From: Escherichia phage vB_EcoM_EP32a
Length of the DNA stretch: 64,000 nucleotides
Sequence record: OR544954
Reading direction: 5' to 3' (one strand)
The notes under the pieces were generated by a model. That model worked only from the letters and a program-made list of their open reading frames with translations, was not told where the DNA came from and ran no database searches. This document shows positions 3,409-59,977 of this stretch, in pieces. Made by a program: the position numbers and the translations under genes. Each line of letters starts with the position of its first letter. The first letter of the stretch is position 1.

Positions 3409-3639
3409 TTAGAAGTCTTCTTCCTCATCCTCATCATCGCCTTCAAGTTCGGCACGCTTACCTGCTAAGGCATCCCTGACAGAAATATCATCTGTATCTT
3501 TTAATTCCGTTTCTTTTATACGTTTCTTATAATAAGCTTCCAATTCTTCAAGCCCTTCTAAGGTATGACAACTAGCAATTTTACCCATGAATTCGTCAAT
3601 AGATGCTTCGTATAAAAATTGTTTAAATTCAAGTACCAT
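3409..3639 (-). CDS. UvsW.1 small acidic protein
   Basis: 76 aa ORF with acidic C-terminus immediately downstream of uvsW, as T4 uvsW.1. Confidence 0.7.
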   Translation of the reverse strand: MVLEFKQFLYEASIDEFMGKIASCHTLEGLEELEAYYKKRIKETELKDTDDISVRDALAGKRAELEGDDEDEEEDF

Positions 3640-3664
3640 TTTTATCTCCTAAGGGCCGAAGCCC

Positions 3665-5179
3665 TTATAAATTAATTGTTTTCATTACATAGTTAAATTT
3701 CTCATCAGCGTAACGTTGGATACGATCAATACCGTGTTTTAACAAGTAATTAAGATGAGTATACTTCTTTTTAGTATTTAATGATTTAGGTTTTACGCCT
3801 GCATCGTCGATGAGATCCCAAACTGTAGCAACAGCTTTAGAACCATGCTTGCGAAGCACACGACCTACGGTTTGAAGTACGATAATTTTTGATTTAACAC
3901 CATGAGCAAAAATAACATGATGAAGATTCTTGACTGAAATACCAGTAGAGAATACTCCATATGATGCGACAATAATAATGCCTTTACCATTTTCTGCCAT
4001 GACTTTAAGCGCGTTACGTGTTTCAGTATCAACTTCACCTGATACGTAATAAACTTTTTCGTATCCAAGCTCTTTAATAGCTTCAAATATTTCTTTACCG
4101 TGTGTAACGTGTTTAAACATTACAAAGGCGTTCTCGTCTTTCTTAGCCAATTTGACTGAAAGTTGAGCAATCCACTTTGTACGTCGTTTTAGTCCGGTAA
4201 TAATTTTAACTTCTTCTTGGTATGTTTTACCTTTTAATTTGGTGGCGAATTCGTCTGGATAACGAAGGAAAATACTATTAATCTTAAGCTCAGTTACCTG
4301 TCCATCTTCCATTAATTTAGACGTGCTAACAGGACGGAAGATTTCGCCGAACATACCTACGTACTGCATTACATTGGCTTTTCCGTCTCTTAATGAGCCA
4401 GATAAACCGAATTTAAACATACAATTATTTAATCCAGAGATGATTGAAGAAATACTTTTGCCTGTTGCTAAGTGGCATTCATCGTTCATCATCATACCGA
4501 ACTGAGAGAACCATTCTTTAGGCTGCTTAACTACTGTTTGCCATGTGCCAACAATAATTGGAGCGTCGTTTTTAGATTTGTCTGCTTTATCAGCACCACC
4601 GCCAATTTTCTTAATCATCGAATGACTAAACAAGCGATAATCAACAAAATCATTAGCCATCTGGGTTGTCAATGCTGTTGTAGGGACGATAATGAGAATT
4701 TTACCTTCATAGTTCTCTAGATAATATCGAGCTAAAAGTGCTTGGATTAGTGATTTACCTGCTGATGTCGGAAGGTTTAAAATTCGACGACGATTAACTA
4801 GTCCTTCATATACTGCATCTTTTTGATACCAATGTGGTTCGATTTTGGCGTTGCCGGAATAAATTTCTTGTTTAGAAAGCCATGCGTCAAAATCTTCCCT
4901 GGTAAGGTCTTCGGTCTCAAAGATTTTAGGGTCAATCCATACAGAATAACTCATATTGTTACAGAACTTTTTTATTTGTCCTACAAGTCCATATGGTAAC
5001 AAACGGTTGTAATCTAAAAGTCGAATTCTACCATCCCATTGCCCATAGCGATATTTTGGGTTAAATTTATACCCGTCAGCTTCAAAGCTAAAAAAGTCAC
5101 GAAGTTCGTAAAACGTACTTTCGTCGCATTCAATGCGCACGTGACTAAAATCATAAAAATGTACTTTAATGTCAGTCAT
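3665..5179 (-). CDS. uvsW: UvsW DNA/RNA helicase (SF2)
   Basis: 504 aa ORF; Walker A-like LPTSAGKS and DEAH-like MMNDECH motifs; position between inh and uvsY as in T4. Confidence 0.85.
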   Translation of the reverse strand: MTDIKVHFYDFSHVRIECDESTFYELRDFFSFEADGYKFNPKYRYGQWDGRIRLLDYNRLLPYGLVGQIKKFCNNMSYSVWIDPKIFETEDLTREDFDAWLSKQEIYSGNAKIEPHWYQKDAVYEGLVNRRRILNLPTSAGKSLIQALLARYYLENYEGKILIIVPTTALTTQMANDFVDYRLFSHSMIKKIGGGADKADKSKNDAPIIVGTWQTVVKQPKEWFSQFGMMMNDECHLATGKSISSIISGLNNCMFKFGLSGSLRDGKANVMQYVGMFGEIFRPVSTSKLMEDGQVTELKINSIFLRYPDEFATKLKGKTYQEEVKIITGLKRRTKWIAQLSVKLAKKDENAFVMFKHVTHGKEIFEAIKELGYEKVYYVSGEVDTETRNALKVMAENGKGIIIVASYGVFSTGISVKNLHHVIFAHGVKSKIIVLQTVGRVLRKHGSKAVATVWDLIDDAGVKPKSLNTKKKYTHLNYLLKHGIDRIQRYADEKFNYVMKTINL

Positions 5180-8700: not shown

Positions 8701-8731
8701 AAAAAAGGGACCTTACGGTCCCTTTTGTTTT
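8701..8731. terminator. bidirectional terminator between rnlB (+) and gene 24 (-)
   Basis: gggacc-ttac-ggtccc hairpin flanked by an A-run and a T-run. Confidence 0.65.
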
Positions 8732-10013
8732 ATTCATCGATGATAATTTTCGGTAGTTTAACACCTAATAAAACAGACAAGTCTGAACGTCCTGCCATTT
8801 TATCCATGTCCCCGCCATCAATTATTCTCGCTTCTTTTTCATCTTTTGCTACTGTGTAAGGATTTGCTGATAACGCATATCTAACCAATAATCCGATAGA
8901 CGGTTGCAAGCTTTCTGGATCAACTACAACTTTAAATGCACCGACATGTTCCGGGTCATCTAAATCTATTCCTTCAGTGTATGGAGCATAAAAGATGGAC
9001 CCTACAATTTCTTTTTCGCCGAGATTTTCTACAACACCCACAATAACATAATCTAACGGGCTGTTGGTATCGCAGTAAAGAGGTAATCCATTTGCCAAGA
9101 ATCCATAAGCATTTTGTGAAAGATACTTGTCATCTTCTGGCTTATGTTTTAACCAACCAGAAGCAGCAAGAATAGCAGCTGCACGGGCTGAGGCTACACA
9201 AAACGTTGCAGTATAAGTTGTTTCTTTTTGAATGTGTGATACCATTTCACACACCATTCGATATAATGAACGACCTGCTTCTGGAGCTGATGCATAACTC
9301 AAGTCAATAAATCCGGTGTCAGTAATTCCAGTAACTTTATAACGTTTCGATACAGTAATTAAAGACTGAAGAATATCTTTATTAATTTCATCTGCCATTT
9401 CAGTAGCAAGCAAATCTTCTAAGAAGTTAGGGGCATCAAATCCATTCGCTTCTAAATCTTGCGCTAATTCGACCGTTAGGCCAGTTTTAAGTTTACGAGA
9501 TTTGACTGAAGTTTGCCATTTATTAATCTGGAATCTTGCATCAGAAATTTCGCTATCAGAGCTTTCAAATTTGTTTGTTACCGCTGCATCTGAAAATAAC
9601 CGTACCTTTAAATGAACGACTGCAATCTGAAGAGCTAATTCTAGATCACTTTCTTGAATATCTGCAAATGGTGTATCTTCTAACACTTTATAGACGATAT
9701 TATTATATTTGAAAAAATCACCTTTATTTAGTGTGACTTTTGATTCTTCTGTGAGCTCAGTAATTTTTTCTCGGTCTACATATCCAGCTTCGCCTGCATA
9801 AGTAGCACCAGTTTTAAATGTGAATTCGTTATCTGGGTTAAGATATTTGATACCATAAAAAGCAGCAACAGGTTGATTAGTTCTTTGTGTTGCTACAATG
9901 TCAGAATATATTAATTTAGTCGTAGCGCGAGTCAAAGCAACGAGATTTGGGCGACCAATTGAGTTGCTAGTAGACGTTGTAGATTCACGCAATAATTTTT
10001 GGATTTTACTCAT
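8730..10013 (-). CDS. 24: capsid vertex protein gp24
   Basis: 427 aa ORF, T4 gp24 length; gp23-like fold signature; position downstream of gene 23. Confidence 0.9.
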   Translation of the reverse strand: MSKIQKLLRESTTSTSNSIGRPNLVALTRATTKLIYSDIVATQRTNQPVAAFYGIKYLNPDNEFTFKTGATYAGEAGYVDREKITELTEESKVTLNKGDFFKYNNIVYKVLEDTPFADIQESDLELALQIAVVHLKVRLFSDAAVTNKFESSDSEISDARFQINKWQTSVKSRKLKTGLTVELAQDLEANGFDAPNFLEDLLATEMADEINKDILQSLITVSKRYKVTGITDTGFIDLSYASAPEAGRSLYRMVCEMVSHIQKETTYTATFCVASARAAAILAASGWLKHKPEDDKYLSQNAYGFLANGLPLYCDTNSPLDYVIVGVVENLGEKEIVGSIFYAPYTEGIDLDDPEHVGAFKVVVDPESLQPSIGLLVRYALSANPYTVAKDEKEARIIDGGDMDKMAGRSDLSVLLGVKLPKIIIDE

Positions 10014-10040
10014 TGCATTTTTTCCTTATGTGATATAGAT

Positions 10041-10048
10041 TATTTATA
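10041..10048 (-). promoter_or_regulatory. late promoter motif upstream of gene 24
   Basis: tatttata on plus strand (TATAAATA on minus) about 28 nt upstream of the gp24 ATG. Confidence 0.5.
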
Positions 10049-10054
10049 AAGATT

Positions 10055-10114
10055 GTTTACAACGTATTTGGTATGTGATACTATAGACTTATCAACTACA
10101 GAGGAGTAAACAAA
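10055..10114 (+). promoter_or_regulatory. early-promoter cassette (GTTTAC -35, TACTAT -10, RBS GAGGAG)
   Basis: GTTTAC, 18-nt spacer, TACTAT, then tatagacttatcaactacagaggagtaaacaaaATG; near-identical copy at 45507-45565. Confidence 0.6.
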
Positions 10115-10384
10115 ATGACTAAAGCACGTTTCTTACGAGATACTTTAAAAGTTCTAGAAGCTGAAGCAGTTAAGTTAGTAGAAAAATATGGTGCAAAAGT
10201 TAATGGTAATGCCTTCAACAAAGTATGGATGAAAGTTGATTCTGAAGCTCGAGCTAAAGGTTATTGGGCCACTGATAAACTTGCATCATTCAAAAACAAA
10301 GACGGTTCTCCAGCGTATGTCCAAGAAGGTATGCCTAATTGGCAAAATATTTTGAAAACTTACATCAAAATTGCACAGAAATAA
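10115..10384 (+). CDS. hypothetical protein between genes 24 and 23
   Basis: 89 aa ORF (MTKARFLRDTLKVLEAEAVK...) on the opposite strand to the structural genes, with its own promoter cassette. Confidence 0.6.
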   Translation: MTKARFLRDTLKVLEAEAVKLVEKYGAKVNGNAFNKVWMKVDSEARAKGYWATDKLASFKNKDGSPAYVQEGMPNWQNILKTYIKIAQK

Positions 10385-10392
10385 AACCAAAA

Positions 10393-10415
10393 ATGGGAGA
10401 CCGAAGTCTCCCAAA
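10393..10415 (-). terminator. intrinsic terminator downstream of gene 23
   Basis: gggagac-cgaa-gtctccc hairpin followed by a U-run on the minus strand. Confidence 0.6.
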
Positions 10416-10436
10416 ATAAGATTTAATCAATTAAGA

Positions 10437-12005
10437 TTAGATGCCTTTTACATATACACGGCGGAAGTAAGCGTTCTTACCAAGGCTGTTCAGGATAGAC
10501 GGCATACCGGACTGGATGCGAGCACCTGGAGCCTGCAGGGAACTTTCAGCAAACGGGTTAACACCGATACCGTAACGAGTTTTAAAGCCCATTACCGGCT
10601 GGAAGTTCTTAGGATCGGAACCACGCAGTGGGGTAAGTGCAACGTAAGGAGCATAGTAAATACCTGCATCCATTTCGTTAGCGCCTTTGTAACCAACGGT
10701 GAAGTAATCCTGTTTAGCATACTGGTCGATGTACACGCGGTATTTACCACCAAGTACACCGGCAAATACAGACTTAGTAGTGTCGGTATTAAAACCAGAA
10801 GCCAGACCCTGTGCAGCGTAAGAAATACCAGTATCAACTGAAGCCAGTACGTTAACTACGTTACGGGAAGCGATAATGAAGTTACCTTCACCACGACCTG
10901 TTTGACGAGCAATTTCAACTGCTTCTTTATCAATCTGGAACAACAGAGATTTAAAGCTTTCACCGGCCCAACGAGCACCACGGATATCAATCGGGTCCTG
11001 GAAGTCAAATACACCAGCTTTAGAACCCGGAGTCAGGGTCATACCAGATTTACCAACCTGTGCTGAGTAGTTAATCCAATCAACAACTTCACGGTTGATT
11101 TCTAGCATAATTTCTGTAGCCAGAATACCGCTCAGTTCAGCATCAGCATCCATACCGTGTACTGCACGGAGGTCTTGTGCTAATTCGATAGAGTAAGCAG
11201 CTTTCAGCTGGCGAGATTTAGCTTCGATAACTTGTTTATCGATACGGAAGCCCATTTCATTCCATGGGTTATCGGTAGAACCGTTGAAACCTTCCTGGAG
11301 TTCAGCGATAGAAGTAGCCATACCTTCAGCGATTTCTACCAGTGCACCAGCTTCCATTTGTTTCTTAACTTCTGCATCTAATTTAGCTGCATCAGTTGCA
11401 CCAGAATCAAGTGTTACGATAGCAGAAGCTTGCAGATATACAGTACCAGTTTCTTGGAAGAAGTGAGTATAGATATCACCTACAACAGTAGTAGTGTCAG
11501 CAGCCAGAGCTGGGAATTTCTTAGCAGCACCCTGACCAGAGAACATCGCGTCTGGGGCATACATCGGATGGAAAGCTTCTTTAGCGCCAGCAGCGATAGG
11601 GTCTTTACCATATACTGCACGGAGAGCAAATACCTGACCGGTCGGGCTGTTCATAGGCTGAACACCACAAATATCAAAAGCGATCAGATTAGGAATAGCA
11701 CGACGAACCATACCCATAACTGCCGGCCCAATTTGGGTTACTGCACCAGAGGTTTGACCTGCTGCGATGTTCTGAGCATTATAACCATGGTCACCACCAA
11801 TTTCAGCTTCGGTCAAGAAAGAACCGAATGCCTGAGCGATTTTCTCGTCTTTATATTCAGGGGATACTTCGAAATCTTTTTCCTGGTTTTCGAAGATTTT
11901 AGCGATAATAGCCTGCTTGCTATTAGCGATTTCCGGCAGGCCTTCACCTTCCAGCAGTTCTTTCCATTTGTCTACGAGCTGAGCTTTAGTTTTGATAGTA
12001 GTCAT
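10437..12005 (-). CDS. 23: major capsid protein gp23
   Basis: 522 aa ORF (MTTIKTKAQLVDKWKELLEGEGLPEIANSKQAIIAKIFENQEKDF...), near-identical to T4 gp23. Confidence 0.95.
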   Translation of the reverse strand: MTTIKTKAQLVDKWKELLEGEGLPEIANSKQAIIAKIFENQEKDFEVSPEYKDEKIAQAFGSFLTEAEIGGDHGYNAQNIAAGQTSGAVTQIGPAVMGMVRRAIPNLIAFDICGVQPMNSPTGQVFALRAVYGKDPIAAGAKEAFHPMYAPDAMFSGQGAAKKFPALAADTTTVVGDIYTHFFQETGTVYLQASAIVTLDSGATDAAKLDAEVKKQMEAGALVEIAEGMATSIAELQEGFNGSTDNPWNEMGFRIDKQVIEAKSRQLKAAYSIELAQDLRAVHGMDADAELSGILATEIMLEINREVVDWINYSAQVGKSGMTLTPGSKAGVFDFQDPIDIRGARWAGESFKSLLFQIDKEAVEIARQTGRGEGNFIIASRNVVNVLASVDTGISYAAQGLASGFNTDTTKSVFAGVLGGKYRVYIDQYAKQDYFTVGYKGANEMDAGIYYAPYVALTPLRGSDPKNFQPVMGFKTRYGIGVNPFAESSLQAPGARIQSGMPSILNSLGKNAYFRRVYVKGI

Positions 12006-29762: not shown

Positions 29763-29770
29763 TATTTATA
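29763..29770 (-). promoter_or_regulatory. late promoter motif upstream of gene 9
   Basis: tatttata on plus strand about 33 nt upstream of the gp9 ATG. Confidence 0.5.
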
Positions 29771-29778
29771 GATACAAA

Positions 29779-29800
29779 AATGGGAGCCCGAAGGCTCCCT
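29779..29800 (-). terminator. intrinsic terminator downstream of gene 8
   Basis: gggagcc-cgaa-ggctccc hairpin followed by a U-run on the minus strand. Confidence 0.55.
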
Positions 29801-29802
29801 AA

Positions 29803-30807
29803 TTAAAACATAAACAAAATGTTAATTTCTTCTGTTTGGTCCATTGCCATAATAACAGGTGGTCGGTTTTCCATATAAATCATTTCACCAGAATGACGTT
29901 GCAGGTCTCTAGGGTCGTAATAATCCTTTTCTGCTTTAACATTAGGGTCATTTGGATTTTTCTTAGCTTCTAATGGGTTTGCGATAATTGATATCTGTCT
30001 AAAACCCTTGTTACCTGGCAAAGCTGCCTCAGGGAAATAAACAGAATCAAAATATGCTTTAAACCGCATTGTATTAGCTTTAACACGATAAATCAAGCCG
30101 TAGTCGTCTTGTTGCCAAGTTAAGTTATTTTCATATCCCCAACGGGTGGGGTCTTCTTTAATTTCTTCCGGCCATGGAACTACAAGATATTCATTAGTGC
30201 AACGGTTAATTGACACATCGGCAGGAATCTCATAAAGATATTCCCAAATATATCCATCACCGGTTTCGATAACCCCATTAGCATCGCCTCTGCCTTCAGG
30301 AGGAGACATAGAACGAACAGACGGAGTCCATTTACCACCTAATTTAAGACATTCGTCTTTATTATCTAAAGATTCTATTGAACAGAGCCCTACGTCAGGG
30401 ACGTCTAAACAACGGTAAATTAACCAACCGGCTCCAACTTCTGTCGCGTTGTACGGAGCAGTATTACATGCGACTATATCGTTAATTCTAAACGTGTAAG
30501 GGTCTGGATATCGCACATCTCCCCAATCACGTCTAGGAATAACAGAATCTAACATTGAAGGTAAAACTTTAACGGTACCCATCATGTGGGTCCACATATC
30601 AGTAACACCAAGAACAGAATCTGTAGGATAAGGTGGGGCGAAGCCCACCTCATTTTCATTTGACGCCCAAGGCTCTGAACGTCCAAACGTAATATAAATG
30701 GAGTTCTTATCATCTCCATCCCCAACTGAATTATAAAAATTCAGCATTTTCTCTGTTCTAAATTTTGATGTAACTATTGCACGATAGATAACACTTGAAT
30801 CATTCAT
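29803..30807 (-). CDS. 8: baseplate wedge protein gp8
   Basis: 334 aa ORF, T4 gp8 length. Confidence 0.9.
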   Translation of the reverse strand: MNDSSVIYRAIVTSKFRTEKMLNFYNSVGDGDDKNSIYITFGRSEPWASNENEVGFAPPYPTDSVLGVTDMWTHMMGTVKVLPSMLDSVIPRRDWGDVRYPDPYTFRINDIVACNTAPYNATEVGAGWLIYRCLDVPDVGLCSIESLDNKDECLKLGGKWTPSVRSMSPPEGRGDANGVIETGDGYIWEYLYEIPADVSINRCTNEYLVVPWPEEIKEDPTRWGYENNLTWQQDDYGLIYRVKANTMRFKAYFDSVYFPEAALPGNKGFRQISIIANPLEAKKNPNDPNVKAEKDYYDPRDLQRHSGEMIYMENRPPVIMAMDQTEEINILFMF

Positions 30808-42500: not shown

Positions 42501-42513
42501 TTTTTACAAAACA

Positions 42514-42577
42514 GTTTACATAAGGATGATGGTGTGTTACTATCATCCTATCAAATAAACAGCCTCAAGGAAATAAA
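42514..42577 (+). promoter_or_regulatory. early promoter / stem-loop cassette (PeSL-like) upstream of ipI
   Basis: GTTTACA -35, 17-18 nt spacer, TACTAT -10; 8-bp inverted repeat aggatgat/atcatcct spans the -10; A-rich leader. Confidence 0.65.
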
Positions 42578-42865
42578 ATGAAAACCTATAAAGAATTTAT
42601 ATCACCTGTTGCTAACGTTTCTACTCTGACCGAAGCATCCCTTACTTCTGAAGTTATTAAAACAAATAAAGGACGTGAGGGTAAACCAATGATTAGTCTG
42701 GTTGATGGTGAAGAAGTAAAAGGTACTGTTTACTTAGGGGATGGATGGTCTGCTAAGAAAGATGGCGCTACTATTGTTATCTCTCCGGCTGAAGAGACTG
42801 CACTGTTTAAAGCTAAGCATATTTCTGTAGCTCAGCTTAAAATTATTGCAAAAACTCTTCTGTAA
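42578..42865 (+). CDS. ipI: internal protein I-like (capsid-targeted internal protein)
   Basis: 95 aa ORF; N-terminal capsid targeting sequence MKTYKEFIS and an LTE motif that fits the gp21 cleavage pattern. Confidence 0.8.
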   Translation: MKTYKEFISPVANVSTLTEASLTSEVIKTNKGREGKPMISLVDGEEVKGTVYLGDGWSAKKDGATIVISPAEETALFKAKHISVAQLKIIAKTLL

Positions 42866-42868
42866 GTA

Positions 42869-42935
42869 GTTTACATGCTGATAGGACTATGTTATAGTAG
42901 TCCTATCAAATCAAATGAGTAAATGGAGAAATAAA
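42869..42935 (+). promoter_or_regulatory. PeSL-like early promoter cassette
   Basis: GTTTACA, spacer, TATAGT; perfect 10-bp inverted repeat gataggacta/tagtcctatc; leader caaatcaaatgagtaaatggagaaataaaATG. Confidence 0.65.
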
Positions 42936-44352: not shown

Positions 44353-44426
44353 GGCCCTGTAGCTCAATGGTTAGCAGCAGTCCCCTCATAAGGGAAAGGT
44401 TACCAGTTCGAATCTGGTCTGGGTCA
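44353..44426 (+). tRNA. tRNA with anticodon CAU (Met or Ile2-type)
   Basis: Hand-folded cloverleaf: acceptor ggccctg pairs with ctgggtc (one U-U), D-loop with GG, anticodon loop cuCAUaa, T-arm accag-TTCGAAT-ctggt; D-stem only 3 bp. Confidence 0.6.
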
Positions 44427-44432
44427 TATATT

Positions 44433-44509
<77 letters not shown>

Positions 44510-45042: not shown

Positions 45043-45134
45043 CGGAACGTTCGGATATGGTCGAGATATGGCCTTTTAAAAATATTGAGTAGCGTCAACT
45101 GCTTAATAACCGGGTTCGAATCCCGGCGTTTCGT
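45043..45134 (+). ncRNA. tRNA-like element (canonical T-arm and 7-bp acceptor stem, non-canonical interior)
   Basis: ccggg-TTCGAAT-cccgg T-arm; cggaacg pairs 7/7 with cgtttcg; D and anticodon arms could not be folded canonically by eye. Possible type II tRNA, pseudo-tRNA or stable RNA. Confidence 0.35.
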
Positions 45135-45186
45135 ACAAACACTTTGCCTTAGTAGGTGGAACCCCGACAAGGTTGCCGCAAGGCTT

Positions 45187-45214
45187 AGCCCCTTCCGAAA
45201 GGTCGGGGCTTTTT
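45187..45214 (+). terminator. intrinsic terminator with GAAA tetraloop
   Basis: agcccc-ttCC-GAAA-GGtc-ggggct followed by TTTTT, directly upstream of the next RBS. Confidence 0.6.
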
Positions 45215-45226
45215 GAGGAAAATGTT

Positions 45227-45529
45227 ATGAGTCTTTACACTGAACTGAATAAAAAATCTGAAGAATCTGCTGAAACTATTTTTAAAAACGTGCAAAAGCG
45301 TATTTTAGAAAAGATGTATAACGCTGCAGCTAAAGGTGAAAAATCTTGCCGGTTTCCGATTAGGTGTTCTTCCGATTTATGCGCAAATACTATTGAATGG
45401 TTGGAAAGTGAAGGTCTTACGGTAGAGAAAAACCCGGCGACTTCTATTGGCAGTGAATCATATATTAGTATTTCTTGGGATAAATCAACAAAATTAAAAA
45501 TAATGATGTACAAGCACCAAGGATGGTGA
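45227..45529 (+). CDS. hypothetical protein
   Basis: ORF track starts at 45173; RBS gaggaaaa plus Met at 45227 (MSLYTELNKK...), about 100 aa. Confidence 0.6.
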   Translation: MSLYTELNKKSEESAETIFKNVQKRILEKMYNAAAKGEKSCRFPIRCSSDLCANTIEWLESEGLTVEKNPATSIGSESYISISWDKSTKLKIMMYKHQGW

Positions 45530-45565
45530 TACTATAGACTTATCAACTACAAAGGAGTAAACAAA
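45507..45565 (+). promoter_or_regulatory. early promoter cassette, near-duplicate of 10055-10114
   Basis: TGTACA -35, 17-nt spacer, TACTAT -10, then tagacttatcaactacaaaggagtaaacaaaATG. Confidence 0.6.
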
Positions 45566-45730
45566 ATGACTACTTTAATTATTTGGTTCGATGAAAATGA
45601 AGAAACATACTGTGTGAATATTGGTGAAAGTCCAATGCCTGAATTTGAATCCTCAGATAAAAACTCTGTTGTATCTTGGGCTGAAGGTTATAAAGCCGCT
45701 AAAGGTGACGTTGAAATAATTTACATCTAA
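45566..45730 (+). CDS. hypothetical small protein (54 aa), absent from the ORF track
   Basis: ATG at 45566 after the conserved leader and RBS aaggag; MTTLIIWFDENEETYCVNIG... Confidence 0.5.
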   Translation: MTTLIIWFDENEETYCVNIGESPMPEFESSDKNSVVSWAEGYKAAKGDVEIIYI

Positions 45731-45776
45731 GTAAGTTTATGTTATAGTAATCACATCAAATAAAGAGGAAAACAAA
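45720..45776 (+). promoter_or_regulatory. early promoter (TTTACA, 17 nt, TATAGT)
   Basis: Sigma70-type -35/-10 with 17-nt spacing, then RBS agagga and ATG at 45777. Confidence 0.55.
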
Positions 45777-46004
45777 ATGGCTAAAGTTAGTATTGATGTC
45801 GTTGATTATGAATACACCGAAGAAGTTATTCGCAACCGACACCCTGAAGTTCGTATCGATTCAGTCCAAGATTCCAAGTTCTGGACAACTGAGCTTAATC
45901 TGAGTGGTCCTTATGAAGCTGTTAAGAAGTTCATGGTTGAAGAATACTGCGAAGGCATGCACCCTGAAGATGCAGAATTTTATGTCAACTTGATTAAAAA
46001 ATAA
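45777..46004 (+). CDS. hypothetical protein
   Basis: 75 aa ORF with RBS agaggaaaa. Confidence 0.6.
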   Translation: MAKVSIDVVDYEYTEEVIRNRHPEVRIDSVQDSKFWTTELNLSGPYEAVKKFMVEEYCEGMHPEDAEFYVNLIKK

Positions 46005-48615: not shown

Positions 48616-48813
48616 ATGTCTCGTGAATTAGATTGTGCTGTACGTACGGCAGTAGCTGCTCTGGAAAACCTGTTCCAAATTGCAACAGAAGAACGCGAAG
48701 AAGTTACATTATGGATTGAAGATAACGCAGGTCTGAATCTCCAGGACGCGATCTCATTATCCCACAATAGTATCACTGTTCAAGGCTGGGTATCATCTAG
48801 TTATTCTTGCTAA
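48616..48813 (+). CDS. hypothetical protein, tandem paralog 3 (C-terminal QGWVSSSYSC)
   Basis: 65 aa; RBS ctaaggaa; same family, shortest member. Confidence 0.55.
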   Translation: MSRELDCAVRTAVAALENLFQIATEEREEVTLWIEDNAGLNLQDAISLSHNSITVQGWVSSSYSC

Positions 48814-48817
48814 AACA

Positions 48818-48875
48818 GTTTACAACAAGATAGGGCTATGTTATAGTAGTCCTATCAAAACAAATGGAGTCCACA
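48818..48875 (+). promoter_or_regulatory. PeSL-like early promoter cassette
   Basis: GTTTACA, spacer, TATAGT; inverted repeat gatagggcta/tagtcctatc (one mismatch); leader caaaacaaatggag. Confidence 0.65.
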
Positions 48876-50100: not shown

Positions 50101-50112
50101 TTTCACAAAACA

Positions 50113-50180
50113 GTTTACAAGGTCTGTAGTTGTTGATACTATAGACCTATCAAAACAAATGAGTGAATGGAGATATAAAA
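50113..50180 (+). promoter_or_regulatory. PeSL-like early promoter cassette
   Basis: GTTTACA, spacer, TACTAT; inverted repeat ggtctgtag/ctatagacc; leader caaaacaaatgagtgaatggagatataaaaATG. Confidence 0.65.
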
Positions 50181-50381
50181 ATGACTACTTTGAATAAACG
50201 TTTCGGTAAAGCTAAACCTGGTTGTGCAGCAGAACGTCGTTATGTTTTCGCTCAGTTAGAAGATGTAGAGTATCAGATTAATCAAGTTCACATTACTGGT
50301 ATCGAGCCTATGTGTGGCCTTGAAGCTCTTCGTGAAGTTCGTGATGGGTATCGTCGTGACATCGAAGAAATGTCAAAATAA
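50181..50381 (+). CDS. hypothetical small protein
   Basis: ORF track starts at 50163; Met at 50181 after the conserved leader; 66 aa. Confidence 0.55.
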   Translation: MTTLNKRFGKAKPGCAAERRYVFAQLEDVEYQINQVHITGIEPMCGLEALREVRDGYRRDIEEMSK

Positions 50382-50382
50382 G

Positions 50383-50439
50383 TGTACAAACTGATAGGAC
50401 TATGTTATAGTAGTCCTATTAAAACATGAGGAGAATATT
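50383..50439 (+). promoter_or_regulatory. PeSL-like early promoter cassette
   Basis: GTGTACA, spacer, TATAGT; 9-bp inverted repeat ataggacta/tagtcctat as in the 42869 copy; RBS gaggag. Confidence 0.65.
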
Positions 50440-53799: not shown

Positions 53800-54060
53800 A
53801 TGAAAATGTATCAAGAATTTATCATTGAAGCAGATGCCAAAGACCCTAAATTTAAAGTTAAAGCTTTCATTGGTGATGCGGAAGACTTTGGCTCATTAAA
53901 ACGTAATGGGTATTCTTTCTTAGGTGGTGATGGTAAAGAAATCAACACCTATGCAAAACGTAGTGAAATTGCTTATGTTGTAGTAAGTCCTAAAGTAGAT
54001 GTTGACGATATTGGATACGATTTTAACAACTTCGGAATTATTTCTGGCGGTAAAGCTTAA
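53800..54060 (+). CDS. internal protein (IP-like)
   Basis: ORF track starts at 53734; RBS aagga plus Met at 53800; capsid targeting sequence MKMYQEFIIE; 86 aa. Confidence 0.65.
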   Translation: MKMYQEFIIEADAKDPKFKVKAFIGDAEDFGSLKRNGYSFLGGDGKEINTYAKRSEIAYVVVSPKVDVDDIGYDFNNFGIISGGKA

Positions 54061-54063
54061 ATT

Positions 54064-54123
54064 GTTTACGCTTAAGTATTAATATGGTATAATTACTCTA
54101 TCAAAACAAACAAGGAAACAAAA
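54064..54123 (+). promoter_or_regulatory. early promoter cassette (GTTTAC, 18 nt, TATAAT)
   Basis: Consensus-like -35/-10 followed by the conserved leader ctatcaaaacaaacaaggaaacaaaaATG. Confidence 0.65.
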
Positions 54124-59713: not shown

Positions 59714-59920
59714 ATGCTTTACGATTATACTGGAAAATCTGAAGACGGTGTACTTGAGCTTTTATCTGAAAGCGCTGAAGATGACGATACGGTGGTGATG
59801 TTTTGTAAAAATGGTCCTGGGGATAAGGGATGGATTTATCTTCGCCAAGAAAATGACCTAATTGTTTTGGACCCTAAACAAGTTGAAGAACTTTATCAAC
59901 ATTTAAAACACAATCGGTAG
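59714..59920 (+). CDS. hypothetical acidic protein
   Basis: ORF track starts at 59687; Met at 59714 after RBS gagga. Confidence 0.5.
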   Translation: MLYDYTGKSEDGVLELLSESAEDDDTVVMFCKNGPGDKGWIYLRQENDLIVLDPKQVEELYQHLKHNR

Positions 59921-59977
59921 TTTACGTCTTGGTAGGACTATGATATAGTAATCCTACCAAAACAAATGGAGAACAAA
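59920..59977 (+). promoter_or_regulatory. PeSL-like early promoter cassette
   Basis: GTTTAC, spacer, TATAGT; inverted repeat ggtaggacta / taatcctacc; leader aaaacaaatggagaacaaaATG. Confidence 0.65.

Follow-up and report, generated by a model that had tools for sequence, protein, structure and literature searches.

The question raised by this locus is how a small gene behind an early-type promoter comes to lie, on the opposite strand, between two late capsid genes of a T4-like phage, and what it might do there. The window, that is, the whole 64,000-nt stretch of Escherichia phage vB_EcoM_EP32a (OR544954) that was analysed, is part of a Mosigvirus (RB69-like Tevenvirinae) genome, and its positions 9900–10600 match Escherichia phages vB_EcoM_SA79RD and SA35RD with 100% identity and HX01, JS09, PhAPEC2, ST0 and others with 99%, all of them Mosigvirus. 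In the open reading frame (ORF) list, hoc and then rnlB, both on the plus strand, come before a minus-strand block consisting of gp24 (gene 24; 8730–10013, start codon at complement 10011–10013), gp23 (gene 23; 10437–12005, stop codon at complement 10437–10439), gp22 and gp21. Between gp24 and gp23, on the plus strand, lies an ORF of 89 aa (10115–10384, ATG at 10115, stop codon at 10382–10384). An earlier note on this DNA had described such an ORF with an early-type promoter at this place, and the ORF list, a promoter consensus scan and the annotation of SA79RD all agree with that description. Gene and promoter are already in GenBank: the SA79RD record has five features at matching positions, including the early promoter and the 89-aa ORF, whose product is given as a hypothetical protein.

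The left border of the slot is the late promoter of gene 24 (TATAAATA, 10041–10048, minus strand), which was read from the sequence, is annotated as T4-late in SA79RD, is kept in every T4-like phage compared and stands back to back with the early promoter. The latter (10055–10084, plus strand) has GTTTACA at 10055–10061, a 17-nt spacer and TG-a-TACTAT at 10076–10084; it is annotated as an early promoter in SA79RD and was called as sigma-70 type by the consensus scan (TTTACA-17-TACTAT with upstream TG, 10056–10084, plus strand), with a score of 9/12 plus TG that shuffled sequence reaches equally often. The distance of the −35 element from the late promoter of gene 24 is the same in T4, in JS98, VR20 and 04086 (all three with GTTTACA), and likewise in the metagenomic phages that encode the homologues P0004, P0005, P0006 and P0016. 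An ad hoc pattern for early-type promoters matched 11 places in the window, all on the plus strand, ten of them within 42.5–60 kb and the 23–24 promoter being the sole one outside that range. The region upstream of the promoter is AT-rich, the leader is about 21–24 nt long and a GAGGAG Shine-Dalgarno sequence (the GGAG ribosome site) is present at 10101–10106.

The right border is a GC-rich hairpin (GGGAGACC-GAAG-GTCTCCC, 10394–10413), the intrinsic terminator of gene 23 on the minus strand, with folding z values of about −4.6 to −4.9 on the two strands. On the minus strand it is followed by the U tract UUUUUGGUUUU, as in a classic gene 23 terminator, and on the plus strand by AAAAUAAG, which has no U tract; a scan for intrinsic terminators called the minus strand alone (10413–10394), while SA79RD has terminators annotated on both strands at about 10384–10423 (window numbering). 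Since the plus strand has no U tract, the hairpin may only partly stop early plus-strand transcripts. Related hairpins terminate gene 23 in the T4-like phages compared, including those in which the slot is empty. An Rfam search of 9900–10500 returned no RNA family. A 78% identical copy of the terminator region 10381–10430 is present at 29768–29817 (ATAnAnACAAAAATGGGAGnCCGAAGnCTCCC), which suggests a late-gene terminator motif in reuse.

The 89-aa protein and its family

Substitution rates indicate that the ORF is a real coding gene under purifying selection, with dN/dS of 0.13 (window versus P0004) and 0.14 (JS98 versus 04086), both taken within one sequence type (A or B, see below), where synonymous sites are unsaturated. 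The protein (about 10 kDa, pI 9.8) has a sole family match, phrog_6003 (E = 2.9e-45, residues 1–89 on positions 1–90 of 90), to which no function is attached and whose members, including JS98 orf173, VR7 gp190, RB69ORF188c/189c and SA79RD_184, are about 84–93 aa long, basic (all with pI 9.3–9.8) and all annotated as hypothetical. With no named family matched, the earlier description of the protein as unrecognised stands. AlphaFold2, run on a 15-sequence alignment, predicted with pLDDT 90.7 and pTM 0.77 a fold of helix 3–25, helix 31–48, a beta-hairpin 52–60/66–70 and helix 76–88, on which the BFVD model of a 32%-identical family member superposes with a TM score of 0.85. Among the invariant residues are the motif NGNAxN at 30–35, which extends over the helix 1–helix 2 loop into the beginning of helix 2, and W51 and Q70.

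No known relative of the predicted structure was found, and no match above threshold came from Pfam, NCBIfam or PADLOC, either for the window protein or for distant members; PDB sequences, searched with a profile, returned chance-level matches only, and no characterised T4 early protein showed homology. Matches to Pfam DUF4859 (17.9 bits against a cutoff of 22.6, with only 3 of 15 family members at E < 0.1) and to Ca_bind_SSO6904 were weak and inconsistent and were rejected. An exhaustive profile search of 1.8 billion representatives matched only 10 proteins. Matches to the two large proteins among them, P0022 (dominated by Big_2 Ig-like and leucine-rich repeats) and P0024 (filamin-type Ig repeats), were sums of weak repeat matches and were discarded as spurious because the predicted fold of the family is helical, and P0020, which looks like a chimeric metagenome ORF, was also set aside. 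Full-length distant members were found in P0021 and P0023, which lie among small ORFs on contigs of non-T4-like phages, and the Vequintavirinae phage ABPH49 encodes a homologue 61% identical to P0021; the homologues in Vequintavirinae and on these other contigs do not adjoin capsid genes, and they speak for mobility of the gene outside the T4-like phages.

The gene is frameshifted in the RB69 reference genome and in phage mogra. In RB69 (NC_004928; locus L019, 5292–5532) it is split into RB69ORF188c and RB69ORF189c by one +1 and one −1 indel along with a mutated patch, and in mogra (locus L005, 1501–1769) it is split through a 1-nt deletion in an A run. These frameshifts are consistent either with dispensability (pseudogenisation) or with sequencing errors; together with the absence of the gene from many T4-like phages, they are consistent with a non-essential gene. 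Our tentative suggestion is that this basic three-helix-plus-hairpin protein might be a dispensable host-directed binder, which would act in host takeover or counter-defence through a host protein or nucleic acid and would not be a component of the virion or of its assembly. It is more doubtful that phrog_6003 represents a new-fold early effector that binds a host target for takeover or the neutralisation of defence, in which case swaps between types A and B could be an arms-race exchange of alleles. The practical value of these results is modest; phrog_6003 is a small, phage-only family with a confidently predicted fold, present in hundreds of therapeutic-candidate coliphages.

An unlikely alternative to a role of the protein is that the locus works mainly through antisense RNA, early readthrough of the hairpin into anti-gene 23 sequence damping premature capsid expression and the ORF being secondary. 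Such readthrough would fit the call of the terminator on the minus strand only, with AAAAUAAG on the plus side, and a promoter-like site at the same position upstream of T4 segD suggests that the promoter is kept whatever the cargo. However, purifying selection clearly acts on the ORF, its ribosome-binding site is strong and its fold is predicted with confidence, and phages with an empty slot do without such a promoter.

Occupants of the slot between genes 24 and 23

A tblastn search with the protein matched 239 phage records, about 120 of them at 80–100% identity (Mosigvirus) and 119 at <60%, compared with 2463 records for gp23. Diverged homologues (31–37% identity) occur in Dhakavirus, Gaprivervirus and unclassified T4-like phages; those of JS98 (Dhakavirus), VR20 (Gaprivervirus) and 04086 (Dhakavirus) occupy the 23–24 slot on the equal relative strand, and the genes for the metagenomic P0004, P0005, P0006 and P0016 also lie between gp24 and gp23. 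Because the gene is found in about 120 Mosigvirus records and has diverged homologues in the same slot elsewhere, we regard it as an old resident of the slot in several genera and not as a recent insertion.

The small gene is absent from the slot in T4 (Tequatrovirus), where segD lies antisense to genes 23 and 24; in NM4.3 (Moonvirus), which has a homologue 64% identical to SegD oriented as in T4; in KP27 (Slopekvirus), where a SegD homologue has the other orientation; in KMB43 (Krischvirus), where about 740 nt of other sequence are found; and in T2, JD18, KMB19 and PS2, whose slot is empty, the whole intergenic gap measuring 81–87 nt and the late promoter being directly followed by the terminator hairpin. 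In 04086 the small ORF is followed after 3 nt by a gene for a 223-aa protein 57% identical to SegD. The slot is thus multi-state (empty, SegD, type A, type B, or type B plus SegD), and within the otherwise conserved capsid block of T4-like phages the 23–24 gap is a place where gene content varies especially often. Since the slot is empty or otherwise filled in several T4-like phages, the gene is not a core gene. The earlier note, which took the ORF for an insertion and named its conservation in all T4-like phages as the finding that would speak against this, was borne out as to the variability of the slot, with the gene missing from T2, JD18, KMB19 and PS2; a recent insertion is not supported.

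In the same region of 04086 (OR842557; locus L004, 2501–3442), the type-B ORF is accompanied by the segD homologue as an unannotated gene, and gp23 is annotated as a truncated coding sequence (3502–4611), yet the full 519-aa ORF is present (3502–5061). In JS98, VR20 and the loci L015 and L023 the vertex gene 24 is present as a tandem pair of paralogues (24a and 24b), and the window, T4 and T2 have a single copy.

Strict synteny between genes 23 and 24 over three genera, together with purifying selection, could be taken to mean a conserved T4-like core gene with a role in head assembly, placed beside the capsid genes for that reason. We consider this very improbable, as T2, JD18, KMB19 and PS2 have no gene in the slot and T4 has SegD there, the promoter is of the early and not the late type, the copies in RB69 and mogra are frameshifted, and the homologues in the Vequintavirinae phage and on other contigs lie away from capsid genes. 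It is scarcely credible that a Seg-type homing endonuclease formerly occupied the slot and that the ORF is what is left of it in degenerate form, or an accessory domain of it: the slot is a landing site of SegD in four lineages, the ORF directly precedes a segD homologue in 04086 and one weak 17-residue BLASTP match to SegD was obtained (E = 0.022), but hhalign gave a probability of 0.6% for the family against a SegD alignment, Pfam found no GIY-YIG or other nuclease domain, and the structure prediction gives a bundle of helices plus a hairpin.

T4 has segD, which encodes a free-standing homing endonuclease of the GIY-YIG family, between its genes 23 and 24 (Edgell et al. 2010, PMC2988022), and the T4 record and this paper agree with the earlier note on its position, which is the same slot on the same relative strand. 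Both segD and the window gene run antisense to the two capsid genes, and their borders agree: on the left the late promoter of gene 24, followed by a TTTACA −35, and on the right the terminator hairpin of gene 23. In contrast, segD encodes 223 aa with a GIY-YIG domain, whereas the window gene encodes an unrelated protein of 89 aa without a nuclease motif and has no sign of self-mobility. A more speculative possibility is that occupancy of the slot, or the protein itself, shields the 23–24 region from SegD-type invasion or cleavage in mixed infection. According to the 2010 review no segD-specific promoter had been identified (PMC2988022). In T4 (AF158101; locus L006, 4834–4806, minus strand) a TTTACA-17-TATTAT match with upstream TG (10/12) lies on the segD strand; it is the best match in the region, lies as far from the late promoter of gene 24 as the early promoter of the window does and is a candidate promoter for segD.

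The leader shared with the 45.5-kb locus

A 47-nt patch at 10075–10121 (plus strand), covering the −10 element, the leader, the GAGGAG Shine-Dalgarno sequence and ATGACTA, is identical at 46 of 47 positions to 45526–45572 (plus strand), upstream of a 54-aa early ORF (45566–45730, phrog_5461). A 43-nt pattern made from the patch matched exactly at 10075–10117, with one mismatch at 45526–45568 and nowhere else in the window, against 0 matches expected from shuffles. The other early-promoter copies in the window are only 61–74% identical to the patch pair, which is therefore a true outlier. On either side the likeness ends, with 8 of 20 positions matching in the −35 element and spacer (10055–10074 versus 45506–45525) and 17 of 60 in the next 60 nt of coding sequence. 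A relationship between the 89-aa protein and the 54-aa protein that shares its leader was considered and rejected, hhalign giving no relation. The second locus was analysed directly and through ST0 and T2, window coordinates drifting relative to SA79RD around 45 kb.

The earlier note had called the two promoter cassettes near-identical and took this to imply movement of a regulatory cassette between distant loci. The near-identity is confirmed for the 47-nt patch and fails for the −35 element and spacer; the proposed movement is contradicted by the −35 element, which is at one and the same offset across genera, and by the patch being all that the two loci have in common. Nor is the wider reading tenable to any appreciable degree, in which the gene would be a recent, genome-specific insertion that arrived along with a promoter cassette copied from 45.5 kb. 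An opposite-strand gene does interrupt the late-gene block, and its 47-nt leader is common to a distant locus; against this, the gene is present at 95–100% identity in about 120 records of Mosigvirus, other genera have diverged homologues at this very place, and the −35 element, constant in its offset across genera, is not common to the 45.5-kb locus.

Comparison with other phages suggests how the patch may have been composed. The T2 orthologue of the second locus has the −35 element, spacer and −10 region in common up to TATAGACTTATCAA (TATCAA), after which its leader is different and 7 nt longer, the patch being only partly present. The contigs encoding P0004, P0005, P0006 and P0016 have GTTTACA in place, followed by TGTTATTATGCTTCTA... 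instead of the patch; they represent the nearest homologues outside Mosigvirus at the 23–24 locus, and none of their leaders has the full patch. The leader of P0004, CAACTAAGGAGAGTAAAATGACTAAA, is similar to the patch in its right half. Judged by its likeness to the T2 second locus, the left half of the patch seems to belong originally to the 45.5-kb locus; the right half, judged by its likeness to the P0004 leader, possibly belongs to the 23–24 locus. The patch is present in RB69 with 3 substitutions, and the second-locus copy of ST0 is identical to the first-locus copy of the window, which implies either an event before the diversification of Mosigvirus or ongoing homogenisation. The most fitting reading of the patch is that two early leaders underwent a crossover or a gene conversion over a short tract, and not that a whole promoter was transferred, and the pattern points to short-patch recombination between these leaders in an ancestor of Mosigvirus.

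Near the second locus, some 600 nt downstream of a tRNA-Met and tRNA-Arg pair (44353–44509), the stretch 45085–45215 contains what resembles the 3' end of a tRNA (GGTTCGAATCCCGGC), together with a GC-rich hairpin that has a U tract; ARAGORN and Rfam called nothing at 45085–45215. Around this element the window is not collinear with SA79RD, and no phage record spans 45180–45800 as one aligned piece.

Exchange between promoter and terminator

The slot proteins fall into type A, comprising Mosigvirus, P0004, P0005 and P0006 (the metagenomic proteins being 62–71% identical to the window protein), and type B, comprising JS98, 04086, VR20 and P0016 (31–36% identity to the window protein). P0006 is carried by a 173-kb JS98-like metagenomic phage, which shares with JS98 the tandem duplication of gene 24, with identities of 94% for gp24 and 92% for gp23; its slot protein is 30% identical to that of JS98 and 62% identical to that of the window. 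At the DNA level, the P0006 phage and JS98 are 85–95% identical through gene 24, the late promoter and the −35 element, about 50% identical from the spacer through the −10 element and the entire ORF, and near 100% identical again from AAACAAGAATGGGAGACCGAAGTCTCCCA, the terminator. As this alignment reads, the difference is a promoter-to-terminator module replacement of the kind proposed for ORFans bounded by PeSL cassettes, a clean exchange inside the T4-like core structural block with visible breakpoints. The discordance of types A and B could instead reflect old alleles sorted by ordinary recombination of the capsid genes, with no special role for promoter and terminator.

The closest parallel to the replacement reading is offered by the promoter-early stem-loop (PeSL) cassettes described from T4-type phages (Arbiol et al. 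2010, PMC2839356; Comeau et al. 2014, PMC4122927). The window promoter fits the T4/PST-type early promoter consensus TTTACW-N17-TAYWAT (PMC4122927) and adjoins a variable ORFan; the breakpoints between the P0006 phage and JS98 are at the promoter and at the terminator hairpin, as for ORFans bounded by PeSLs; and the homogenised 47-nt tract covers the −10 to Shine-Dalgarno interval in which PeSL mini-circle crossovers have been mapped (Arbiol et al., PMC2839356). The module in the window would likewise be transcriptionally insulated. Unlike PeSLs, the 23–24 promoter has no adjoining stem-loop: 10050–10120 folds at −13.1 kcal/mol with z = −1.65, 13 of 200 shuffles folding as well, against z = −4.92 for a canonical PeSL-like copy at 42864–42914, and no hairpin is closer than the terminator of gene 23, which lies some 300 nt further on, beyond the ORF. 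A further difference is the placement of the module in the core capsid block and not in a hyperplastic region, for which PeSL-type shuffling has so far mainly been described (PMC2839356, PMC4122927). The promoter having no stem-loop, we take the module to behave in the manner of a PeSL but do not class it among the canonical ones. The gene also resembles the small non-essential early ORFans of the T4 hyperplastic regions, in general accessory genes of host takeover and anti-defence, which are likewise driven by early promoters (predicted for the window gene), about 10 kDa in product size, dispensable, patchy in occurrence and horizontally exchanged; it differs from them in its position in a late capsid operon region.

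We consider it probable that the gene is a self-contained early-gene module lodged in the 23–24 gap and exchanged through short homology. The linkers would be the repeated early promoter and leader sequences together with the conserved flanks (the late promoter, the terminator, or genes 23 and 24 themselves), and T4-type homologous recombination, for which short patches of homology would be enough, would join them, as has been proposed for PeSL cassettes. Immediately after infection, unmodified host sigma-70 RNA polymerase would transcribe the gene; transcription of the late genes 23 and 24 would then run antisense across the ORF and switch it off, possibly aided by cleavage at the GGAG ribosome site, a plausible target of RegB-type activity. 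Antisense late transcription and RegB-type cleavage would together confine expression to the first minutes. These expectations for the expression of the gene derive from established T4 biology.

All the ingredients of this locus are of a known kind: T4-type early promoters, ORFans among the early genes, modular shuffling in the style of PeSLs, and the slot that holds segD in T4. What may be new is in the detail: the multi-state 23–24 slot, the swap of types A and B within the capsid block and the chimeric 47-nt leader patch.

Canonical stem-loop-bearing copies are found elsewhere in the window, within 42.5–60 kb. About eight early promoters of the form GTTTACA ... TATAGT lie there on the plus strand (42509–42559, 42864–42914, 45714–45764, 48813–48863, 50108–50158, 50377–50427, 54059–54109 and 59915–59965), several of them with a 10–11 bp inverted repeat (for example GATAGGACTA / TAGTCCTATC) bracketing the −10 element, and the strongly folding copy at 42864–42914 mentioned above is one of them. 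By their layout, this family of promoters looks like the Mosigvirus version of the PeSL promoter/stem-loop cassettes.
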